In this document: piece by piece, positions 12,091 through 52,094 of the stretch | Layout: each line of letters opens with the position of its first letter | How positions within the stretch are numbered: position 1 is the first letter of the stretch | Virus record (IMG/VR): IMGVR_UViG_3300028886_000041 | Direction: 5' to 3' (one strand) | DNA length: 64,000 nucleotides | Origin: a virus | Lineage: Duplodnaviria > Caudoviricetes | Made by a program: the position numbers and the translations under genes | Notes under the pieces: model-generated | What the model was told of the DNA's origin: nothing | Databases searched by the model: none | Seen by the model: the letters and a program-made list of their open reading frames with translations, nothing else

Positions 12091-12125
12091 GCAGAAATAT
12101 TTATGAATATACAATTAAAATAAAA

Positions 12126-12512
12126 TGGTACCCGGGATGGGACTCGAACCCATACGACCTTGCGATCAGCGGATTTTCTTACCACTATAGTTTTCACTAC
12201 CAGTTATCCAACTGTTTGTGGTCTGGACTTTCCCTTCATCTTCAACATAACTTGGTCAGATGTGCTCCATCAAGTCTCTACACCTTCTTTTATAAATACC
12301 TTGATATGTTTAGAACTTCAAATAGTTCCTTGGTTACTCCTTATCAAGTAGGTTATAACTAAACGTTATAGATTTGCCACGTATTATAAAAGCTTGGCTC
12401 GGGATTAGCATTTTAAAGCCTTCCCCGAATTTGAAGCATTCTACTTAAGTATTTCTACTTAAGCACTCAACTTTGCCTAAGTCCGCTGCGTCTACCATTC
12501 CGCCACCCGGGC
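12126..12512 (-). tRNA. trnL: tRNA-Leu(UAA) split by a group I intron (exons 12479-12512 and 12126-12177)
   Basis: Exon 1 GCCCGGGTGGCGGAATGGTAGACGCAGCGGACTT; exon 2 AAAATCCGC...GGGTTCGAGTCCCATCCCGGGTACCA; splicing gives GCGGA-CTTAAAA-TCCGC. Confidence 0.9.
12178..12478 (-). mobile_element. group I intron (trnL-UAA type, 301 nt, no ORF)
   Basis: Inserted after U34 and ends in G; core-like blocks CAAATTCGGGGAA, AATCCCGAGCCAA, GGTGTAGAGACT, GAAAGTCC. Confidence 0.85.
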
Positions 12513-12539
12513 ATAAATTATATTTTAAAGAACGTGAAA

Positions 12540-29864: not shown

Positions 29865-29935
29865 TTATTTTTTTGTTTTGAGTTAATGTTTTTGAAACTG
29901 TGTATATTTTAAAGGAGAGTTATTTTTTAATAAAC

Positions 29936-30694: not shown

Positions 30695-30768
30695 TGGTTC
30701 CCCGATATTGACTTGAACAATAACTAGATGAACCAAAATCACCTGTGCTACCATTACACCATCAGGGA
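30695..30768 (-). tRNA. tRNA-Gln(UUG)
   Basis: Cloverleaf, GGTGA-TTTTGGT-TCATC, encoded CCA. Confidence 0.85.
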
Positions 30769-30777
30769 GAAATAAAT

Positions 30778-30882
30778 GGGTGGCTCCCTTATAAATATAA
30801 AACTTCCAGGAGCCGTATATGCTGGGAAAGGATAAAACAGCATAAGTTTATTGCAGTTTCGGGTTCTCTGCCAACCGAAAAT
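30778..30882 (-). ncRNA. candidate tRNA-spacer sRNA (pseudoknot, anti-SD hairpin, hairpin)
   Basis: TTTCGG/CCGAAA stem with loop GCAG able to pair CTGC; TATGCTG-TTTTATCCTTTCC-CAGCATA; GGCTCC/GGAGCC. Confidence 0.5.
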
Positions 30883-30887
30883 ATTCT

Positions 30888-30960
30888 CACCGCTTCCGAG
30901 AATTGAACTCGGAACTCATGAATGAAAATCATGTGTTTTAACCATTTGAACTAAAGCGGC
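30888..30960 (-). tRNA. tRNA-Glu(UUC)
   Basis: CATGA-TTTTCAT-TCATG; GCCGCTT/AAGCGGT acceptor stem. Confidence 0.85.
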
Positions 30961-30965
30961 ATACG

Positions 30966-31039
30966 TGGTAACGGTAAGACTTGCACTTACTTCAAACCCC
31001 TTATGAGAGGGTTGTCTCACTATATCCAACCTCGTTACC
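30966..31039 (-). tRNA. tRNA-Met/Ile2(CAU), atypical D arm
   Basis: GGTAACG/CGTTACC acceptor stem; ACCCT-CTCATAA-GGGGT. Confidence 0.7.
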
Positions 31040-31048
31040 GTTTTAAAA

Positions 31049-31377
31049 TGGTGGAGACGCAGGGAATTGCACCCTGGTGTTATATCGCTATAATTTCCAA
31101 TTCGTTCACAAGTTTAGTTTGTTTAATCTTACTACAAACAAGAATTTCATTTCCATTCCTTATTTAATTTCAATATCGAACGGTAGTATATTGAAATCAT
31201 ATTCTTTCATTGGTCACTAATTAAGAATAATCCTTAGTTTTTCCATGCAGCCTTATTACTAAGCTGCAATAGCGTATGTATTGCCATTTATATTTTTGAA
31301 TAATTTTAAAGTATGTTATTCATCTACTACTTGTATCATTTAAAAATTTTCACGACTAATCGATTCTAATCGTCCCC
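31049..31377 (-). ncRNA. ssrA: tmRNA
   Basis: GGGGACG/CGTCTCC-ACCA acceptor with G3:U70, T-arm GGGTGCAATTCCC, tag frame GNTYAIAA* at 31285-31259. Confidence 0.92.
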
Positions 31378-31381
31378 GTGA

Positions 31382-31746
31382 TATATTTGATTTTATTTTA
31401 CTACATTGGTTGGATTCCTCGATTACCAACAAATATAAGTTATAATCAAATTTTTCAGTCATAACCAATAAAGGTAGCTAATCTTTATATTTGGGTTAAT
31501 TGGAATTTCACCAATATTATTTCAACGTTTGCGGGGTATTATGCCTCGGCGTTTACTTTAAACTTTTATTATCATCCTATGCATCCAGATAATAATAAAA
31601 TACCTTATTTTTTCATAATTACATTATTTATGAATATAAACTACAAGCTTTCATCTATATTCATAATACTTTAGTCTCAAATTGATTATATAATCAACCT
31701 CGGCTGACTTATTCGGTCACAATGTAATAAAATAAAATCAAATATA
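31382..31746 (-). ncRNA. candidate large structured RNA (~365 nt)
   Basis: Terminal helix of ~27 bp with one G-U on the minus strand, enclosing many hairpins; own promoter motif and boxA upstream; no ORF. Confidence 0.6.
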
Positions 31747-31753
31747 TTATGTC

Positions 31754-31760
31754 AAAGAAC
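31754..31760 (-). promoter_or_regulatory. boxA-like antitermination motif GTTCTTT (also 12527, 32144, 33192, 33294, 33597, 34157)
   Basis: GTTCTTT, mostly followed by RA, in spacers of the RNA-gene operons. Confidence 0.65.
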
Positions 31761-31798
31761 TTATGTATATTTTAAAAGAGAGTTATTTTTAAAATAAT

Positions 31799-31871
31799 TG
31801 GACCTAAAGAGATTCGAACTCTTGACCCCATGAATGCAAATCATGTGCTCTTCCAACTGAGCTACAGGCCC
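31799..31871 (-). tRNA. tRNA-Ala(UGC)
   Basis: G3:U70, CATGA-TTTGCAT-TCATG. Confidence 0.9.
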
Positions 31872-31884
31872 GAAAAATTATTAT

Positions 31885-31967
31885 TGGGCAATGTAGGTAA
31901 CGCTCCTACCCAGCTAATAAGCAAGAGATTTACAGTCTCCCCTCCGTCTTTAGAAGAATAATTACCC
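31885..31967 (-). tRNA. tRNA-Tyr(GUA)
   Basis: GGAGA-CTGTAAA-TCTCT, long variable arm. Confidence 0.8.
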
Positions 31968-31981
31968 ATATAATTCAAAAA

Positions 31982-32055
31982 TAGACGATACAGGACTCGA
32001 ACCTGTGACCCGTACGTTATCAACATACTGCTCTAACCTACTGAGCTAATCGTCT
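31982..32055 (-). tRNA. tRNA-Ile(GAU)
   Basis: Canonical cloverleaf, GTATG-TTGATAA-CGTAC. Confidence 0.92.
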
Positions 32056-32062
32056 GTAAAAT

Positions 32063-32136
32063 TGGGTGCAGTCGCCGGAATCGCACAATCGGTCCTTCAG
32101 CTTATGGGGCTGATATGCACTTTACACCACCCTGCA
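32063..32136 (-). tRNA. tRNA-Met(CAU), degenerate or atypical
   Basis: TCAGC-CCCATAA-GCTGA with CCA end; acceptor and T arm irregular. Confidence 0.55.
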
Positions 32137-32152
32137 ATATTAGAAAGAACAA

Positions 32153-32233
32153 AGCCAGAAATCAGATTCGAACTGATGAAGCTTTCGCAACGGTTTACAA
32201 AACCGTCCTCGTTGGCCGCTTGAGTATTCTGGC
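32153..32233 (-). tRNA. tRNA-Thr(UGU) with long variable arm
   Basis: GCCAGAA/TTCTGGC acceptor, ACGGT-TTTGTAA-ACCGT, extra arm GCGAAAGC. Confidence 0.8.
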
Positions 32234-32243
32234 GTTTATAAAT

Positions 32244-32335
32244 TGGCTGTCCGAGTAGGGTTCGAACCTACCAAACCATTTATTTACGGTCACAGATTAA
32301 CAGTCTGCTGCATCACCAATTCTGCTCGTCGGACA
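32244..32335 (-). tRNA. tRNA-Asn(GUU) with long variable arm
   Basis: GCAGA-CTGTTAA-TCTGT, extra arm GACCGT-AAATAA-ATGGTT, G73-CCA. Confidence 0.8.
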
Positions 32336-32387
32336 TTCATAATTTAAATATAATTCAAAATTGTTTATTTATTGTTTTATAAATTTA

Positions 32388-33146
32388 TTATAACCCTCGT
32401 TTTTTACCATTTTGTGGAATAAAATCTTTTACATATCTTTTACATTGATTTACAAAATTAACTTGTGTATTATTATAATTAGTAATTTCTTTTAATTTCG
32501 TCCAACCGTATTTACAATATAATTTATATAAATCAGTATAATATTTTTGTTTTTGTGTAAATTTTTGATGTTTTATTTTTAATTTTTCGGCATTAAACTT
32601 ATTTCTAAATTCTAAATCTTCTTTAGTTTTTAATTTTGCTTTATTATGTTTATGATTTATTTTTTTAATAAAAGAATCGAAATTTATAATTCTACCATAA
32701 TTCCAACCCGGTTCTAAAGATTCATTTTTATAAATTTTCTTAGATTTTTTAAGTTGTAAATTATATATCCAAACTTTGCCAAATTGAGAATTTCTTTTTC
32801 CTGATTGAGATTTAGATTGTATTTTACTAAATTGCATTCTTATCATTTCATACATTCGAGAATTGTAAATCCGCTGCTGATTAGGAGTTTTTGTAAATAT
32901 CATCATAACACAAGCTTTAACCATTTTAAAATATGCTTCGTTGTTATCTTCATATATTTTCATTAACAATAAATGACATACATAATGCTCCCGTGCAGTT
33001 AAGTACACAATATTTTCTTTATCATTATTTCCTCCAAGACTTCTTGGAATGATATGATGTTTTTCTGTATAACCTGTTGGCATATTTTGTTTACGAAACG
33101 ATATTATTTTATGGTAATATAAATAATACTTACTGTTAATTTTCAT
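32388..33146 (-). CDS. free-standing HNH homing endonuclease
   Basis: EKHHIIPRSLGG...NIVYLTAREHYVCHLLL; GKRNSQFGKVWI NUMOD-like segment; start moved to MKINSK. Confidence 0.9.
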   Translation of the reverse strand: MKINSKYYLYYHKIISFRKQNMPTGYTEKHHIIPRSLGGNNDKENIVYLTAREHYVCHLLLMKIYEDNNEAYFKMVKACVMMIFTKTPNQQRIYNSRMYEMIRMQFSKIQSKSQSGKRNSQFGKVWIYNLQLKKSKKIYKNESLEPGWNYGRIINFDSFIKKINHKHNKAKLKTKEDLEFRNKFNAEKLKIKHQKFTQKQKYYTDLYKLYCKYGWTKLKEITNYNNTQVNFVNQCKRYVKDFIPQNGKKRGL

Positions 33147-33206
33147 ATAAGTATTTATATAATATAACACTTATATGTTAACAGTTATATCAAAGAACTT
33201 TAAATT

Positions 33207-33283
33207 AGATGCAGTCGCTGGAATTACACCGGACCTTCAACTTATGAGACTAAACTGCTACTACCAACTGAGCTAAACTGGAA
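33207..33283 (-). pseudogene. chimeric pseudo-tRNA (CAU)
   Basis: 3' half resembles 32063..32136; 5' half (AGCTCAGTTGGTAGTAGCA) is from a different tRNA; acceptor unpaired. Confidence 0.6.
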
Positions 33284-33340
33284 TAAAATTATTAAAGAAC
33301 TAAAAAATATTTATAAATTCAATAGAAAAATGTAAATATA

Positions 33341-33578
33341 TGCCATTACCTGGACTTACCCTTATTACCAGATCTCCAGAGTAACATTCTGGACTCTATT
33401 TTTCTTGTGACAGGTTATTGAGCTAATAATGGACTTCAGTTACTGAGACCCGGTTAACCGTTTGTCAATAAAAGCCATGTGCTTTTATAGGCCTATTTTG
33501 ACGATAATAAGCATAGTCAACTGATGAATGGACCATCTCAATGTGGTGAAGTTGTCATCTTCTTGTTACGGGAACCTT
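33341..33578 (-). ncRNA. candidate structured RNA (~240 nt)
   Basis: GC-elevated, no ORF, boxA upstream; hairpins ATAAAAGC/GCTTTTAT, TCCAGA/TCTGGA, TCAG/CTGA; long-range CCATTA/TAATGG. Confidence 0.5.
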
Positions 33579-33616
33579 AAATTTAAATAAATTATCAAAG
33601 AACCAGAAAGTAAATA

Positions 33617-33690
33617 TGGGCCCGACAGGACTCGAACCTGTAACTGGGCGATTATGAATCACCTGTTCCACCAAATTAAACTACAGGCCC
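33617..33690 (-). tRNA. tRNA-Ile2/Met(CAU)
   Basis: GGGCCTG/CGGGCCC acceptor, GGTGA-TTCATAA-TCGCC. Confidence 0.85.
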
Positions 33691-33700
33691 TAAAAATAAA

Positions 33701-33885
33701 CACCATACTATCAATGGTTATTATACACTGATAGTATGGATTTCGCGTACAGACACCTAGTATAATAGTTCTACACAAGCTGATATAGTTGCTTGTGGAT
33801 CGAATTAGTTAGATTCGAATATTATACGCTTATGAAGACCTGTCTGTTAGGTAAGGTTACTAGCCTTTTCTTGCATCAGACGCTT
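33701..33885 (-). ncRNA. candidate structured RNA (~185 nt) between tRNA-Lys and tRNA-Ile2
   Basis: Nested stems ACAGACA/TGTCTGT, GTATAATA/TATTATAC, TCGAAT/ATTCGA, CACAAGC/GCTTGTG, CCATACTATCA/TGATAGTATGG. Confidence 0.55.
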
Positions 33886-33894
33886 ATAAATTTT

Positions 33895-33968
33895 TAGATC
33901 AACTGCGACTTGAACGCAGAACCAACGACTTAAAAGGTCGCTACTCTAACCAATTGAGTTATTGATCC
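33895..33968 (-). tRNA. tRNA-Lys(UUU)
   Basis: GCGAC-CTTTTAA-GTCGT cloverleaf. Confidence 0.88.
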
Positions 33969-33973
33969 TTAAA

Positions 33974-34047
33974 TGGTCGGGTATATCCGATTTGCACGGC
34001 GACCCATCGCCCCAAACGACGTATGTTCCTATTACACCATATACCCG
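33974..34047 (-). tRNA. tRNA-Pro(UGG)
   Basis: CGGGTAT/ATACCCG-ACCA; anticodon loop TTTGGGG. Confidence 0.8.
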
Positions 34048-34064
34048 TATTTTATTTTTAAATT

Positions 34065-34149
34065 AGCTAAGTGTAGGATTCGAACCTACAATGTGCATTT
34101 CACAAACAGTTTTGCGGACTGTTGTCTTCAACCATTCGACCAACTTAGC
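34065..34149 (-). tRNA. tRNA-Cys(GCA) with long variable arm
   Basis: ACAGT-CCGCAAA-ACTGT, U73, extra arm TGTG-AAATG-CACA. Confidence 0.8.
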
Positions 34150-35690: not shown

Positions 35691-35823
35691 AAAATTAATC
35701 TCTTGAAACGTTAATTGAAAATCTAATATCAGTAACGAATTGATATAAATATATAATAAATAAAAATTGATAAAAATCAATAAAAATTTTTCAAAAAATA
35801 AACTATTTTACATAAATAATTAT

Positions 35824-36426
35824 ATGAAAGCAAAACAGATTGTATCTATTTTAGGTATATCAAAACCAACATTAACAAAATATGTTAAAGAAGGCCTAAT
35901 AAAAATTGATAATGTTATTAATGGTAGATATTTATATAATGATGAATCTGTGTATGCACTAATAGGCAATCGAAAATGTTGTAAGAACAAATATAGTGTA
36001 ATTTATGCTAGAGTTTCAAATCCACCCAAAAAATATCTCGATGAACAAATTCAACGTATTTCTAATTTTTGCATTTCCAAAGGTATTCAAATAACTAAAG
36101 TATATTCTGATATAAAATCTGGTATGTATTTTAATAGAGAAGGATTAGATAATTTAATTTTGGATATAGTTAAAGGTAATATAGATACAATTGTTATTGA
36201 AAATAAAGATAGGTTATGTCGTTTTGGGTTTGAATTGTTTTTATCATTTTGTAAATTTTATAAAACTAAAATTTTAATTATATCTGATTTATCGGAAAAA
36301 TCTTATGAACAGGAGCTGACAGAAGATTTAATATCAATAATACATTATTTTTCTATGAAATCTTATTCCCATAGAAGAAAATTAAACAAATTACGAAAGG
36401 AAATAGAAAATAATGATAACAATTAA
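35824..36426 (+). CDS. tnpA: IS607 TnpA serine recombinase
   Basis: N-terminal MerR-like HTH, IYARVS, DIKSG, ENKDRLCRFGFE, ELTEDLISIIHYFSMKSY. Confidence 0.93.
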   Translation: MKAKQIVSILGISKPTLTKYVKEGLIKIDNVINGRYLYNDESVYALIGNRKCCKNKYSVIYARVSNPPKKYLDEQIQRISNFCISKGIQITKVYSDIKSGMYFNREGLDNLILDIVKGNIDTIVIENKDRLCRFGFELFLSFCKFYKTKILIISDLSEKSYEQELTEDLISIIHYFSMKSYSHRRKLNKLRKEIENNDNN

Positions 36427-37756
36427 ATTAGATATTACAACAACAAACCCCAATAGGATTTTAGAATATCAAAAACAATATTCGAATTTATTACATATAT
36501 TTTATAATAGATATAAAGAAGGCATATCTCAAACAGAATGTAAACATCTTCAATTTAATAATATTGAATTATTAGATAGTTGGTTCAGACAAAGCTGTAT
36601 ATATGAGGCCATAGCATTATGTAAAAAATTTAAAGATAAATCAATTATATTTGGAGGAAAGAAAAATTTCTTTGATAGATTAAAGAATATTATTAGTAAA
36701 GAAGAATATAATAGAAATAGATTAAGTCCTTTATATTCAATAGGTGAGGGTTCTAATCCAGGCGTAAAAGGGAATAGGAAATTTTTTATACGAGATTTAA
36801 ATACAATAATTTTTAAACCATCTAAGAAAGAAAAAATAGAATTAAAATTTCAAATTAATTCGAAAAAATATAAACAATATTTGCAATTATTAATGTTACA
36901 TCAAGATAAAAAAGACTTATCTATTACTTACAAATTATCTCATGAAAAAATTTGGATAAGTTTTGATGAAACTATTTTAAAAACTGAATTAAAAAATTAT
37001 AATAAAATTCAAAATAGAATAATTAGTATTGATTTAAATCCAAATTATATTGGATATTCTGTTTTAGATTGGTTAGATAGTGAACATTTTAATATTATTG
37101 ATAAAGGTATTTTAAGTTTAAAATATTTAAATGATAAAGAAAATAAAACAAAATGCTCATCTAATGATAAACTGAAAATTTATTTAAATAATAAAAGAAA
37201 TTTTGAAGTATTAGAAATATCTAAATTTCTTATAAATAAAATGAAACATTTTAAATGTTCTTTATTTGCTATTGAAAATCTAAATATTAAATCAAAAGAT
37301 AATGGCAAAGGTCGTAAATTCAATAAACTTTGTAATAATCAATGGTGTCGGACAAAATTAGTTAATAATTTACAAAAATGGTGTAATATATATTCAGTAA
37401 ATTTACTAAAAGTTAATCCTGAATATTCATCATTTATCGGAAATATAGTAAACAGAGAATTGAAATTACCTGATATGATTTTAAGTTCAATAGAAATATC
37501 ACGAAGAGCTTTTGAATTTAATCATCAATATATTTTAAAAGATTGTCCTTTAAAAAAGAATATAATATGGATAGAAATGACTAATTATATTAAAAACAAA
37601 ATTATTCAGTCATTGGAAGAATTGAATATTTGTTGTGATTGGAAAAATCTGTTCGAATTATATTTACACATCAAAAAATCTAAATGTAAATATAGATTTC
37701 CACTAGAAATAGATGGTTTTAAGGCAAAATTATTAAAATATCAATTAATTTTTTAA
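36413..37756 (+). CDS. tnpB: IS607 TnpB-like RuvC protein (no zinc finger)
   Basis: RuvC-I ISIDLNP, RuvC-II AIENL, VNPEYSSFIGN..PD. Confidence 0.85.
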   Translation: MITIKLDITTTNPNRILEYQKQYSNLLHIFYNRYKEGISQTECKHLQFNNIELLDSWFRQSCIYEAIALCKKFKDKSIIFGGKKNFFDRLKNIISKEEYNRNRLSPLYSIGEGSNPGVKGNRKFFIRDLNTIIFKPSKKEKIELKFQINSKKYKQYLQLLMLHQDKKDLSITYKLSHEKIWISFDETILKTELKNYNKIQNRIISIDLNPNYIGYSVLDWLDSEHFNIIDKGILSLKYLNDKENKTKCSSNDKLKIYLNNKRNFEVLEISKFLINKMKHFKCSLFAIENLNIKSKDNGKGRKFNKLCNNQWCRTKLVNNLQKWCNIYSVNLLKVNPEYSSFIGNIVNRELKLPDMILSSIEISRRAFEFNHQYILKDCPLKKNIIWIEMTNYIKNKIIQSLEELNICCDWKNLFELYLHIKKSKCKYRFPLEIDGFKAKLLKYQLIF

Positions 37757-49740: not shown

Positions 49741-51613
49741 TGCATGACCGGCTCCGCGCTATTTCACGCGCTCGAGCAACCGAGAAACATCATGATTACC
49801 GTCACCGAAAAGATACGCCCAGTGTGTTATTCCTCTGAGCCCTCGTCGGGTTCGTCTATCGCCTTGCCGTTGTATCGGTCAGCGATAGCCTGAACGTTGG
49901 ATATGCCGAGACGCGCGACGTCGTCCGCGTTCAGGCGTATGACGCGCCCTGGTGCGACAAGTCTGCCGCCGTCTGTGTAGATGTCACCGCAAACTTCGAT
50001 GACCTCGATTTGCAGGTTTTCGTTATCGCCGATTTTTATGCGTGATTGATTTTTCATTTTACATTATGAGTTCGTCGTATGTTATCGCCGCTCGAAGATT
50101 GACGATTCCAGTTCCGGCGGCGTTGCGGAAAATGGAAATTGGAATGTTGTAATCGCCGCCGCCCCAGCAGTTGACAGACTGCCACGTGCGCGCGGCGGAG
50201 AATGTTACCGAGGAGGTGTATCCGCTCGCCGATACGCGGAGAGTTAGCGCTTTGTCGCTCCAAAGTTTGAGCGTGCAGACGCACTTGCCTGCCGCAGCCA
50301 CGACTGTCGAGCCGCCTATTCTGGCGCCCGTATTCTTGGACAAATCGAGCGAGAAATTATCGTAACAAGCCGACGCGGGATTTCGGTTTTTGTCAGCGCT
50401 GACGCCGAGCCCGACGGGAACATATCCCTCGTGAAAATTAAGGTGGTTTCCGTTTCCGGACAGGTCATGTATTTGAGGCCCTGAAAGGGCGTCGTCGGCT
50501 TCGCAGAGGACGTCATCGGCGGTCGTTATCGAAAATCCTGCGACGGATATGGCGTAGTCGCCGTATGTGGGTGAGTTTGTCGGTGAGACGAACAGCGCGG
50601 GAATGTAAAGGCCGTCCTCAATGCTGTCAGTTATGACGGCGTCGTATTCGTGCCACGAGGTGTCGGGTGCGGTCGGCGCGTTGATTTTGACGAGTTGCTG
50701 CTCGGAGATTTCGGGCCCCCATATATAGACGCCGAAGAAGACACTGTCGGTCGCGCTCGTGAGCTTATTCCACTTATACTTAAACTTTATGCGGTATTTG
50801 CGCGTCGATGTGTCCGTCTGAAAATGCCCGTAAGAGTTGCTGAGCGCAGCTTGTTCGTAGATGTTGCCGCTGCCGTTCATCGCGAGGTCTATGGCGTAGC
50901 TCTCGCCGTCGGGCAGGTCTGACGCTCTGTTTTTAAGATAAGACACAAGCGGGCCAGCTACCCAGTCGCCATTTTTAACGGACGAGTATTCCTCCGGCGG
51001 CGTGGTGATGTTCCACGCGGACGTGGACGCGCCCATTGTCGTGTCGGTCGAATATCCATATCGACTGCGCAGCGCACGCGGAACGGATTTCCCCGCGCGG
51101 TAGTCGGCGAACGTGTAAGGCGCGTTCTCGTCCAGAATATCGAAGTCAAAAACCGCAAGCCGCGAAAAGCTGCTGTCGCCATTCGCATAAGTGGAGTTGA
51201 AGCCGAACTCAGTGACGGACGTGGAGAAAGACAGGCTCGTAGCCGCGAGAGACGAATCGTTCGCGGCGATTTTTATTTTTCCGTCGGACGTCCAGACGAA
51301 CGCGACGCAGTATATCGGCGCGGCGGGAATATTGTTGAGCGTGACAGTGTCGAGCCGTTGGTCGTCCATAATTGTGAAAAACGCCGTCGCGGACGACGTG
51401 TGTCCGCCGAATGGGCAGCCGAACATTGTAAACAGCTCCGACTCGTTCATGCTGTCGGTCGTGAATACAAACGAACAAGTTGGCTGAATGTTATAATTTG
51501 CCCGATTGCAGGAGACCTTTTCGGCGCCAGCTGGCGCGTAAAATTTGCCGATGCGCTCTCGCATTAAAAATTCGCTCGAGGACTGAGCCACCTCGAGAAT
51601 TTCGTCGGAAATG
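49741..51613. other. GC-rich horizontally acquired segment (~1.9 kb)
   Basis: Abrupt switch to GC-rich sequence and GC-ending codons, with an abrupt return. Confidence 0.9.
49827..50057 (-). CDS. small protein co-acquired with the GC-rich segment (tail-fibre chaperone-like position)
   Basis: Starts 1 nt after the stop of the large gene. Confidence 0.6.
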   Translation of the reverse strand: MKNQSRIKIGDNENLQIEVIEVCGDIYTDGGRLVAPGRVIRLNADDVARLGISNVQAIADRYNGKAIDEPDEGSEE

Positions 51614-52068
51614 TCACCACTTAAAGTAGCACCATTGATAGTTGGTTTGTTTTCTAAATCGTTATAACTAACACTTAAATCAACAGTGGAAAGATCACCA
51701 CTTAAAGTAACACCATTGATAGTTGGTTTGTTTTCTAAATCGTTATAATCTGATGTTCCACCATCATTTAATAAATATACTAATTTAGCATATCTCGGAT
51801 ATAATCCTTCTTTTCCAGATAAGGGTGGTATAACAGATGAATCTATTTCAACTAACGCACAATCTTCAGCATGTGCTGGATTATACGGATTTTCCGGGTG
51901 AATATCGTTATTATTGCCGTTATTTACGTTATAAACAAATGTAGCATATCTTGGATATACCCCTTCAAGCCCTGTTAGAGGAGAAACAACCGATTGATCT
52001 ACCTCTGTTAAAGTTAAATCTTCAGCATGTGCTGGATTGTAAGGATTTTCTGGATTAATAGTTGACAT
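50059..52068 (-). CDS. putative tail fibre/receptor-binding protein, chimeric
   Basis: Repeats NPENPYNPAHAED x2 and YNDLENKPTINGxTLSGD x2; beta-rich C-terminus with DLSGNGNH (LamG-like tail); ATAAATA motif before MSTINP. Confidence 0.65.
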   Translation of the reverse strand: MSTINPENPYNPAHAEDLTLTEVDQSVVSPLTGLEGVYPRYATFVYNVNNGNNNDIHPENPYNPAHAEDCALVEIDSSVIPPLSGKEGLYPRYAKLVYLLNDGGTSDYNDLENKPTINGVTLSGDLSTVDLSVSYNDLENKPTINGATLSGDISDEILEVAQSSSEFLMRERIGKFYAPAGAEKVSCNRANYNIQPTCSFVFTTDSMNESELFTMFGCPFGGHTSSATAFFTIMDDQRLDTVTLNNIPAAPIYCVAFVWTSDGKIKIAANDSSLAATSLSFSTSVTEFGFNSTYANGDSSFSRLAVFDFDILDENAPYTFADYRAGKSVPRALRSRYGYSTDTTMGASTSAWNITTPPEEYSSVKNGDWVAGPLVSYLKNRASDLPDGESYAIDLAMNGSGNIYEQAALSNSYGHFQTDTSTRKYRIKFKYKWNKLTSATDSVFFGVYIWGPEISEQQLVKINAPTAPDTSWHEYDAVITDSIEDGLYIPALFVSPTNSPTYGDYAISVAGFSITTADDVLCEADDALSGPQIHDLSGNGNHLNFHEGYVPVGLGVSADKNRNPASACYDNFSLDLSKNTGARIGGSTVVAAAGKCVCTLKLWSDKALTLRVSASGYTSSVTFSAARTWQSVNCWGGGDYNIPISIFRNAAGTGIVNLRAAITYDELIM
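51614..51748. repeat. 54-bp direct repeat x2 (51614-51667, 51695-51748)
   Basis: One mismatch; abuts the GC-rich junction. Confidence 0.9.
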
Positions 52069-52094
52069 TATACAAATATTTATCAAAAATTAAT

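Follow-up and report, generated by a model that had tools for sequence, protein, structure and literature searches.

The Locus and Its Stable-RNA Array

The DNA analysed here (the window, that is, the whole stretch of 64,000 nt) is AT-rich, with 28.6% GC, and carries nearly every gene on its minus strand. Its proteins include Hsp70, a macrodomain protein, RtcB, an NAD-dependent ligase, an endolysin-like hydrolase, and an HNH homing endonuclease, and the window also holds an IS607-type tnpA and a neighbouring 447-aa gene similar to the TnpB-like genes of relatives. RtcB shares only ~43% identity with the closest cultured phages, metagenomic contigs measuring 112.7 and 211.6 kb carry proteins identical to those of the window, and Hsp70 relatives with 68–82% identity lie on contigs of 190–265 kb. 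These contig sizes and the distance to cultured phages therefore point to an uncultured jumbo-type phage of roughly 200 kb.

A stable-RNA array occupies positions 30695–34149 of the minus strand and comprises nine tRNAs detected by ARAGORN and a full-length tmRNA. The tmRNA matched Rfam RF00023 over its full length (1–374) with 54.9 bits (gathering score 47) and displays G3.U70, an encoded CCA, and the tag template GNTYAIAA-stop; it is genuine. Directly upstream of it lies an element of 367 nt (31381–31747), and the order on the minus strand is tRNA-Ala, promoter, boxA-like box, element, 3 nt, tmRNA, a tRNA, tRNA-Glu, and tRNA-Gln. The features of the locus, all on the minus strand, are listed below in the direction of transcription.

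31799–31871, minus strand: tRNA-Ala, directly upstream of the promoter
31768–31784, minus strand: phage promoter motif AACTCTCTTTTAAAATA, a perfect copy, with a predicted transcription start near 31764
31752–31760, minus strand: boxA-like GTTCTTTGA (box also written GUUCUUUGA), 4 nt upstream of the 5' arm
31720–31747, minus strand: 5' arm of the terminal helix, 28 nt
31409–31719, minus strand: interior of the element, 311 nt, AU-rich, 28.0% GC, without ORF
31679–31700, minus strand: hairpin H1, GGUUGAUU...AAUCAAUU, which begins within the first CGAGG
31628–31666, minus strand: hairpin H2, 14 bp, including the perfect pairing of TTATGAATATA with TATATTCATAA at 31628–31638/31656–31666
31564–31600, minus strand: hairpin H3, UUUUAUUAUCAUC / GAUGAUAAUAAAA, equal to TTTTATTATCATC/GATAATAATAAAA at 31564–31576/31588–31600, found by the inverted-repeat search and by folding
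31500–31514, minus strand: UUGG-UGAAAUU-CCAA hairpin, present in the sequence
31409–31430, minus strand: GUUGG/CCAAC hairpin, with the third CGAGG in its loop
31381–31408, minus strand: 3' arm of the terminal helix, ending 3 nt before G1 of the tmRNA
31049–31377, minus strand: tmRNA, directly downstream of the element

Several other observations were made in and around the array. Two further matches to the tRNA model, both missed by ARAGORN, lie on the minus strand at 30966–31039 (40.2 bits) and 33978–34046 (35.4 bits). A 91-nt unannotated RNA located between tRNA-Ile and tRNA-Ala (31883–31973, minus strand) has counterparts in two relatives (L129:10755–10845 and L097:11324–11413); the L129 copy is 96.7% identical, although the HNH protein of L129 is only 49% identical, and the L097 copy gave a weak match to the tRNA-Sec model (28.7 bits). 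This RNA is probably an atypical long-arm tRNA overlooked by standard finders. Elsewhere, tRNA-Leu(UAA) (12122–12513, minus strand) is split by a group I intron at 12206–12488 (RF00028, 56.5 bits, gathering score 50, E = 1.6e-13), which was missed by ARAGORN and by the default whole-window Rfam scan and found by a permissive scan; the same tRNA is uninterrupted in the relative L101, and L099 and L127 match the intron. The IS607-type tnpA and TnpB-like genes are found at 35767–37756 (plus strand) in the window and at L092:7055–8344, L094:6795–8411, L095:5569–7521, and L129:7459–8652 in relatives, and their differing sites therefore indicate that they are active in, or often acquired by, this jumbo-phage clade. 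Finally, in a genome of 28% GC, positions 50001–52000 reach 50.5% GC; this block overlaps an ORF of 675 aa (50059–52086, minus strand) that has no Pfam match.

Terminal Helix, Internal Hairpins, and Folding Strength

The ends of the element form an inverted repeat whose two 28-nt arms (31381–31408 and 31720–31747) lie 311 nt apart and are complementary at 27 of 28 positions (96%). The sole mismatch is C.A on the plus strand and hence G.U on the minus strand, so that the ~27-bp terminal helix with one G-U on the minus strand described in the initial annotation was recovered in full. Throughout the 64-kb window, no other inverted repeat of at least 25 nt with at least 90% complementarity within 2.5 kb was detected, and the 23-nt arm pattern gave 0 matches in 100 shuffles. 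A third arm match (20/23) at 32812–32834, inside the HNH gene, showed no extension and was dismissed. The longest ORF of the element has 42 aa and a TTG start, in keeping with its earlier description as non-coding.

All the internal hairpins listed in that description are present in the sequence. The TTGG-TGAAATT-CCAA hairpin, which had been called T-loop-like, does form as a hairpin, but UGAAAUU departs from the tRNA T-loop consensus and no tRNA-model match was obtained. The three occurrences of CGAGG were found again on the minus strand, at 31417–31421, 31544–31548, and 31698–31702. The minus strand of the window has 16 copies altogether, and 0.09 would be expected within the element (Poisson 1e-4, or ~0.04 when corrected for ~360 5-mers); this enrichment is marginal after multiple-test correction.

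Nearly all of the folding signal comes from the terminal helix. With the helix included, the folding energy was −84.4 kcal/mol for the minus strand (z −4.76) and −80.5 kcal/mol for the plus strand (z −6.8). The minus-strand interior without the helix reached −55.7 kcal/mol (z −1.38), and 9 of 100 shuffles were as stable; the plus-strand interior reached −51.5 kcal/mol (z −2.21). The GC content of the whole element, 25.6%, equals the genome background, as against 41–48% for the tRNAs of the array, 37–42% for three other unassigned RNAs, and 30.7% for the tmRNA. A single long inverted repeat can thus give an AT-rich spacer the look of an ornate RNA, which calls for caution.

Promoter, boxA-Like Box, and Predicted Transcription of the Element

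The promoter upstream of the element belongs to a recurrent motif. Allowing up to 2 mismatches, AACTCTYNTTTAWAATA was found 25 times in the window, where 0.53 copies would be expected; all lie on the minus strand, usually with AAAAAT directly 5'. With a looser promoter expression, more than 35 minus-strand copies were obtained upstream of genes (e.g., at 164, 8633, 19362, 29921, 31784, and 49563), and an extended 29-mer of the promoter was found again at 29902 and 49544. More generally, a phage-specific promoter motif, AAAAATAACTCTYNTTTAWAATA, with CAT ~4 nt downstream, precedes most genes, always on the minus strand.

The boxA-like box matches the boxA of Firmicutes rRNA operons. GTTCTTTRA occurs 9 times in the window versus 2.3 expected, and the six minus-strand copies (12525, 31752, 33190, 33292, 33595, and 34155) are located 5–13 nt ahead of tRNA-Leu, tRNA-Cys, another tRNA, an unknown RNA, the HNH gene, and the element. 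In the relative L097 (8880–11415, plus strand), a box GTTCTTTGAAAA is found on the array strand, with at least three copies immediately before tRNA genes. The placement of GTTCTTTGA(AAA) boxes before RNA genes in the tRNA/tmRNA arrays of both this phage and a relative suggests that phage stable-RNA operons may be subject to rRNA-style Nus antitermination. These motif counts, together with the placement of both motifs, back the earlier proposal that the element has its own promoter and boxA.

No minus-strand terminator was predicted inside the element, nor between the promoter and the downstream tmRNA and tRNAs. Since the element follows a consensus promoter, precedes the tmRNA, and has no such terminator, it would almost certainly be transcribed as the leader of the tmRNA–tRNA unit. 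Two hairpins that stay paired on the minus strand only in a 98%-identical strain (see below) further indicate that the element is probably transcribed and partly constrained.

Searches for Homologues and Related Arrays

As had been proposed at the outset, the element was compared with Rfam by cmscan, and no family overlapped it at the gathering score, nor in a permissively filtered scan of 4 kb that reported matches up to E = 10. The permissive mode has power, as shown by its recovery of the group I intron missed by the default scan. No match of the element was obtained to the Rfam 15 models of ROOL, GOLLD, RNase P, 6S, SRP, group I and II introns, tmRNA, Y RNA, or ribozymes, which agrees with the earlier statement that an RNase P signature is lacking.

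The collection of homologues, another check proposed, returned none from INPHARED, IMG/VR, the JGI metagenomes, the GTDB genomes, or five related arrays. A blastn search in distant mode against the 50,697 phage genomes of INPHARED produced tRNA matches only. In IMG/VR, where the best Hsp70 matches reached 56–59%, neither the element nor a tmRNA was present at 92 Hsp70-anchored loci (L001–L080 and L105–L116), and the best relative, G001 (233 kb, 59% Hsp70), also has no tmRNA and no element. A pattern of the GC-rich core gave four matches in IMG/VR, all of them chance matches in GC-rich contigs, and a promoter-motif pattern gave zero; the phage clade appears to be missing from IMG/VR. Arm 20–23-mers searched in the JGI metagenomes and in 185,579 GTDB species genomes returned single-arm chance matches only.

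Relatives were also approached by synteny. The 121-aa neighbour gene led to only two homologue clusters, and its 57% relative L083 has no array at that place; the Hsp70 loci of the 68–82% clade, on 190–265-kb contigs, were without a tRNA array. Through the HNH gene, five related arrays were reached (L097/L098, L099/L100, L101, L127/L128, and L129), and the element was absent from all five. In L097, a homologous tmRNA (nhmmer E = 8e-14) lies 19 nt after tRNA-Gln, and neither an nhmmer match to the element nor a comparable inverted repeat was found there. The interior showed no DNA similarity elsewhere in the window or in the fetched loci. As the element is absent while true array RNAs are conserved in the same relatives, it is specific to the lineage of the window.

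Two other candidate explanations were tried and rejected. A decayed gene was sought with tblastn in six frames, the element being compared with all loci and with the remaining window; only strain variants were returned. An antisense action on the tmRNA was assessed from duplex energies with the phage tmRNA and the neighbouring tRNAs, which were no better than those of shuffles.

Comparison of Two Strains

A variant strain (L084/L085), 98% identical to the window, starts at window position 31709. The 3' 245 nt of the element are identical between the two strains, and the background divergence of the flanks is 0.4–0.7%. In H1, UUGAUUAUAUAAUCAA is replaced by UUGGUUUUGUAUAAAAUCAA in L084, which on the minus strand changes one A-U to G-U and adds two compensated pairs. 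The minus-strand hairpin is kept and longer in L084 (−6.5 kcal/mol versus −5.3 in the window), whereas that of the plus strand is lost (0 versus −2.2). H2 carries two substitutions in L084, one turning a G-C pair into G-U and the other a G-U pair into A-U when read on the minus strand. The energy of H2 in L084 is −9.1 kcal/mol (−11.4 in the window) on the minus strand and −2.5 (−7.2 in the window) on the plus strand.

The minus strand is the likely strand of action, as only there does the mismatched position of the helix form a pair (G.U) and only there are H1 and H2 retained in the variant. This handful of events provides modest evidence that the RNA may be made and that H1 and H2 may matter; two GC-rich hairpins, which pair well on the plus strand only (see below), speak against it.

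The same strains differ within the tmRNA, where a ~25-nt patch just 5' of the tag template (31290–31330, minus strand) is swapped between the two 98%-identical strains; the tmRNA outside this patch, the tag GNTYAIAA included, is identical in both. In other assemblies, contigs of this phage end at 31709 (L084/L085) and 31369 (L082), ~11–12 nt from the arms, which could be due to an assembly tangle at the repeat or to real strain heterogeneity.

Comparison with Known Systems

The tRNA cluster of phage T4 contains stable non-tRNA RNAs of unknown function, species 1 and 2 (rnaC and rnaD), which are co-transcribed and co-processed with the tRNAs, have about 120–140 nt, and are conserved among T4-like phages. 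The element described here has three times their length, is clamped by a helix, and lacks such conservation.

A closer likeness is found in rRNA. [quoted passage not shown] In Coxiella burnetii, it is described as a selfish element of 428 nt in the pre-23S rRNA (PMC4990558), and RNase III spacer stems are a feature of rRNA operons (PMC6582327). The element resembles these systems in that a few hundred AU-rich nucleotides are inserted in a stable-RNA unit and closed by a duplex of the two ends, in being sporadic among relatives, and in that excision would be expected without harm to the flanking RNA. The layout of promoter, boxA, and stem in front of the element is also that of rRNA operons. 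Unlike the 23S IVS, the element precedes a tmRNA, in its 5' leader, is phage-borne, and has no S23p-type ORF, and its excision is proposed here from the helix. A duplex is formed by its ends, and it lies within what would be a stable-RNA transcription unit; an IVS in the strict sense replaces a loop of a mature rRNA helix, whereas the element is situated within the tmRNA 5' leader, 3 nt before G1. By analogy, the principle of a helix-clamped, excisable insert of a stable-RNA operon would be a known one, placed here in a phage tmRNA leader.

ROOL and GOLLD, which had been invoked as precedents, are also non-coding elements beside phage tRNA genes (PMC5737381; bioRxiv 10.1101/2024.12.08.627333), and the position between tRNA-Ala and the tmRNA agrees with such a context. 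However, there is no covariance-model match, and the element has 367 nt versus ~580 nt for ROOL (PMC5737381), GOLLD being longer. Its interior fold is not significant, and homologues are absent from the searched data. The conserved multistem structure with covariation that defines these RNAs was not found, there being no homologue to align.

Alternative Explanations

The main rival to an insert is a functional non-coding RNA, sustained by the strand-specific conservation of the hairpins and by the CGAGG motifs. It would be a stand-alone RNA and represent a new class; its own promoter, with boxA antitermination, would drive its synthesis, RNase III and RNase P would release it at ~330–370 nt, and, protected by its stem, it would act through CGAGG and the hairpins, for instance as a protein or ribosome decoy. 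The dedicated promoter and boxA compose a miniature rRNA-operon layout that suits such an RNA, as does the large RNAs' habit, exemplified by ROOL and GOLLD, of lying near phage tRNAs (PMC5737381). Only on the transcribed strand do the helix mismatch and three of three single substitutions in L084 leave pairing intact, the H1 indel lengthens the stem by two compensated pairs, CGAGG occurs 3 times versus 0.09 expected, and the 3' 245 nt are identical in the two strains. This identity, however, fits the 0.4–0.7% background divergence of the flanks, the strain comparison comprises four or five events (rough estimate, p 0.02–0.05), the folding energy of the interior falls inside the shuffle range, the GC content is that of the background and unlike that of other array RNA genes, and zero homologues were found in the searched collections and in five related arrays. 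We therefore consider a functional RNA unlikely. The initial annotation had suggested a new class of large ornate RNA, and the interior z of −1.38, the background GC, the lack of homologues, and the absence from five arrays speak against it. A more specific version, in which a stable, end-protected phage RNA of ~330–370 nt is produced from the rRNA-operon-like cassette ahead of the tmRNA and binds a host or phage factor through its CGAGG motifs and hairpins, e.g., a component of translation or of ribosome rescue, is decidedly unlikely.

The remaining explanations place the inverted repeat at the DNA level or grant it no role. Miniature inverted-repeat elements (MITEs) are defined as being 50–800 bp long with terminal inverted repeats (TIRs) of at least 10–15 bp (PMC11602168), and an element of 367 bp with 28-bp TIRs, non-coding, intergenic, and patchily distributed like prokaryotic and viral MITEs, fits this published definition (PMC11602168); the arms would then be transposase-binding terminal repeats and the RNA structure incidental. 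Its sporadic occurrence among relatives, a genome that tolerates mobile DNA (IS607), and ends compatible with a 2-bp AT or TA duplication are in line with such an origin. The apparent target-site duplication is nevertheless trivial, as the ends are (AT)n: with ATATAT at both ends, a 2-bp AT or TA is always compatible, and no longer duplication was present. MITEs occur in just 0.01% of viral sequences (PMC11602168), a single copy was found in 64 kb of a ~211-kb genome, no DDE transposase or other matching transposase was recognised among the scanned window proteins, and dispersed copies, which the initial annotation had named as a mark of a MITE, were found neither in the 64 kb nor in the JGI metagenomes or the 185,579 GTDB species genomes, where exact arm 20–23-mers had single-arm chance matches only. 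Furthermore, the variants respect G-U pairing of RNA on one strand, which would be superfluous for a DNA-only element, and a MITE acting at the DNA level is thus quite unlikely. The geometry of inverted repeats is also typical of an inverton, in which the 311 bp enclosed by the 28-bp repeats would be turned around by a recombinase, altering the transcript ahead of the tmRNA and tRNAs, for example by bringing into it the plus-strand terminator-like hairpin 31532–31548, now found only on the currently non-transcribed strand. The contigs from other assemblies do break near the arms, at 31709 and 31369, but off the arm boundaries, and tangles in short-k assembly or strain mosaicism can explain the breaks. 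The hairpin has a poor U-tract, and no invertase is adjacent, the neighbours being tRNAs, the tmRNA, and the HNH gene, with the IS607 TnpA (35767–36426), 4 kb off, as the sole recombinase; we regard an inverton as highly improbable. A neutral spacer, in which template-switching during replication created an inverted repeat that has no processing role and no mobility, would account for the background GC, the unremarkable interior fold, and the lack of homologues. It sits poorly with a 27/28 match whose single mismatch is G-U on the transcribed strand, with the exact placement between boxA and tmRNA, and with the hairpin-preserving variants, and a transcribed 28-bp duplex would be an RNase III substrate regardless of its origin, which leaves this explanation improbable. 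A retron msr-msd was rejected, the downstream neighbours being the tmRNA and then tRNAs and not a reverse transcriptase gene.

A Proposed Helix-Clamped Insert in the tmRNA Leader

We favour, with a probability of about 0.5, the interpretation of the element as a lineage-specific, non-coding insert, IVS-like or MITE-like, that sits in the 5' leader of the tmRNA–tRNA unit, is clamped by its own helix, and is trimmed from the precursor. Transcription would begin near 31764 from the phage promoter at 31784–31768 and run past the boxA-like box through the whole element (5' arm, AU-rich interior of 311 nt, 3' arm), straight on into the tmRNA, a tRNA, tRNA-Glu, and tRNA-Gln. In the RNA, the arms would pair into a 28-bp duplex contributing about −29 kcal/mol and clamping the interior as a closed domain. 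RNase III cleaves duplexes of about 20 bp or more that are fully or almost fully paired, and the 28-bp duplex would be long enough for the host enzyme. The most economical mechanistic reading is that the helix serves as an RNase III-type processing stem. A cut by RNase P 3 nt past the helix would then generate the 5' end of the tmRNA, and the insert would be removed from the precursor in the manner of rRNA spacer stems and 23S intervening sequences, leaving the tmRNA unharmed.

As to its origin, the element would have entered between the boxA and the tmRNA, and a selfish or accidental insertion is, from the arrangement of the locus, most likely. Without the element, boxA would lie 7 nt from G1 of the tmRNA, in line with the other boxA copies, which lie 5–13 nt from their genes. 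Since an empty site (promoter, boxA, and tmRNA without insert) was not found in any close relative, it is from this geometry only that we infer an insertion. Other selfish inserts exist in this phage, namely the group I intron in tRNA-Leu, the HNH gene inside the array, and IS607.

Some observations run counter to the insert. The hairpin changes that leave pairing intact, together with the marginal excess of CGAGG, give a hint that the RNA itself is under some selection, and the GC-rich hairpins 31532–31548 and 31702–31718 pair well only on the plus strand. The failure of the arms to turn up in another copy in the JGI metagenomes or GTDB genomes does not favour membership in a mobile family.

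Should the RNA prove stable and functional, it would represent a new phage RNA linked to ribosome rescue. If the element is instead a helix-clamped insert, the phage would tolerate junk or selfish DNA in an essential stable-RNA operon, the insert's own double-stranded clamp allowing RNase III and RNase P to trim it away, and the logic of rRNA intervening sequences would now be found ahead of a phage tmRNA. The locus also adds to the evidence that this jumbo-phage clade may transcribe its tRNA and tmRNA arrays behind rRNA-style boxA boxes.
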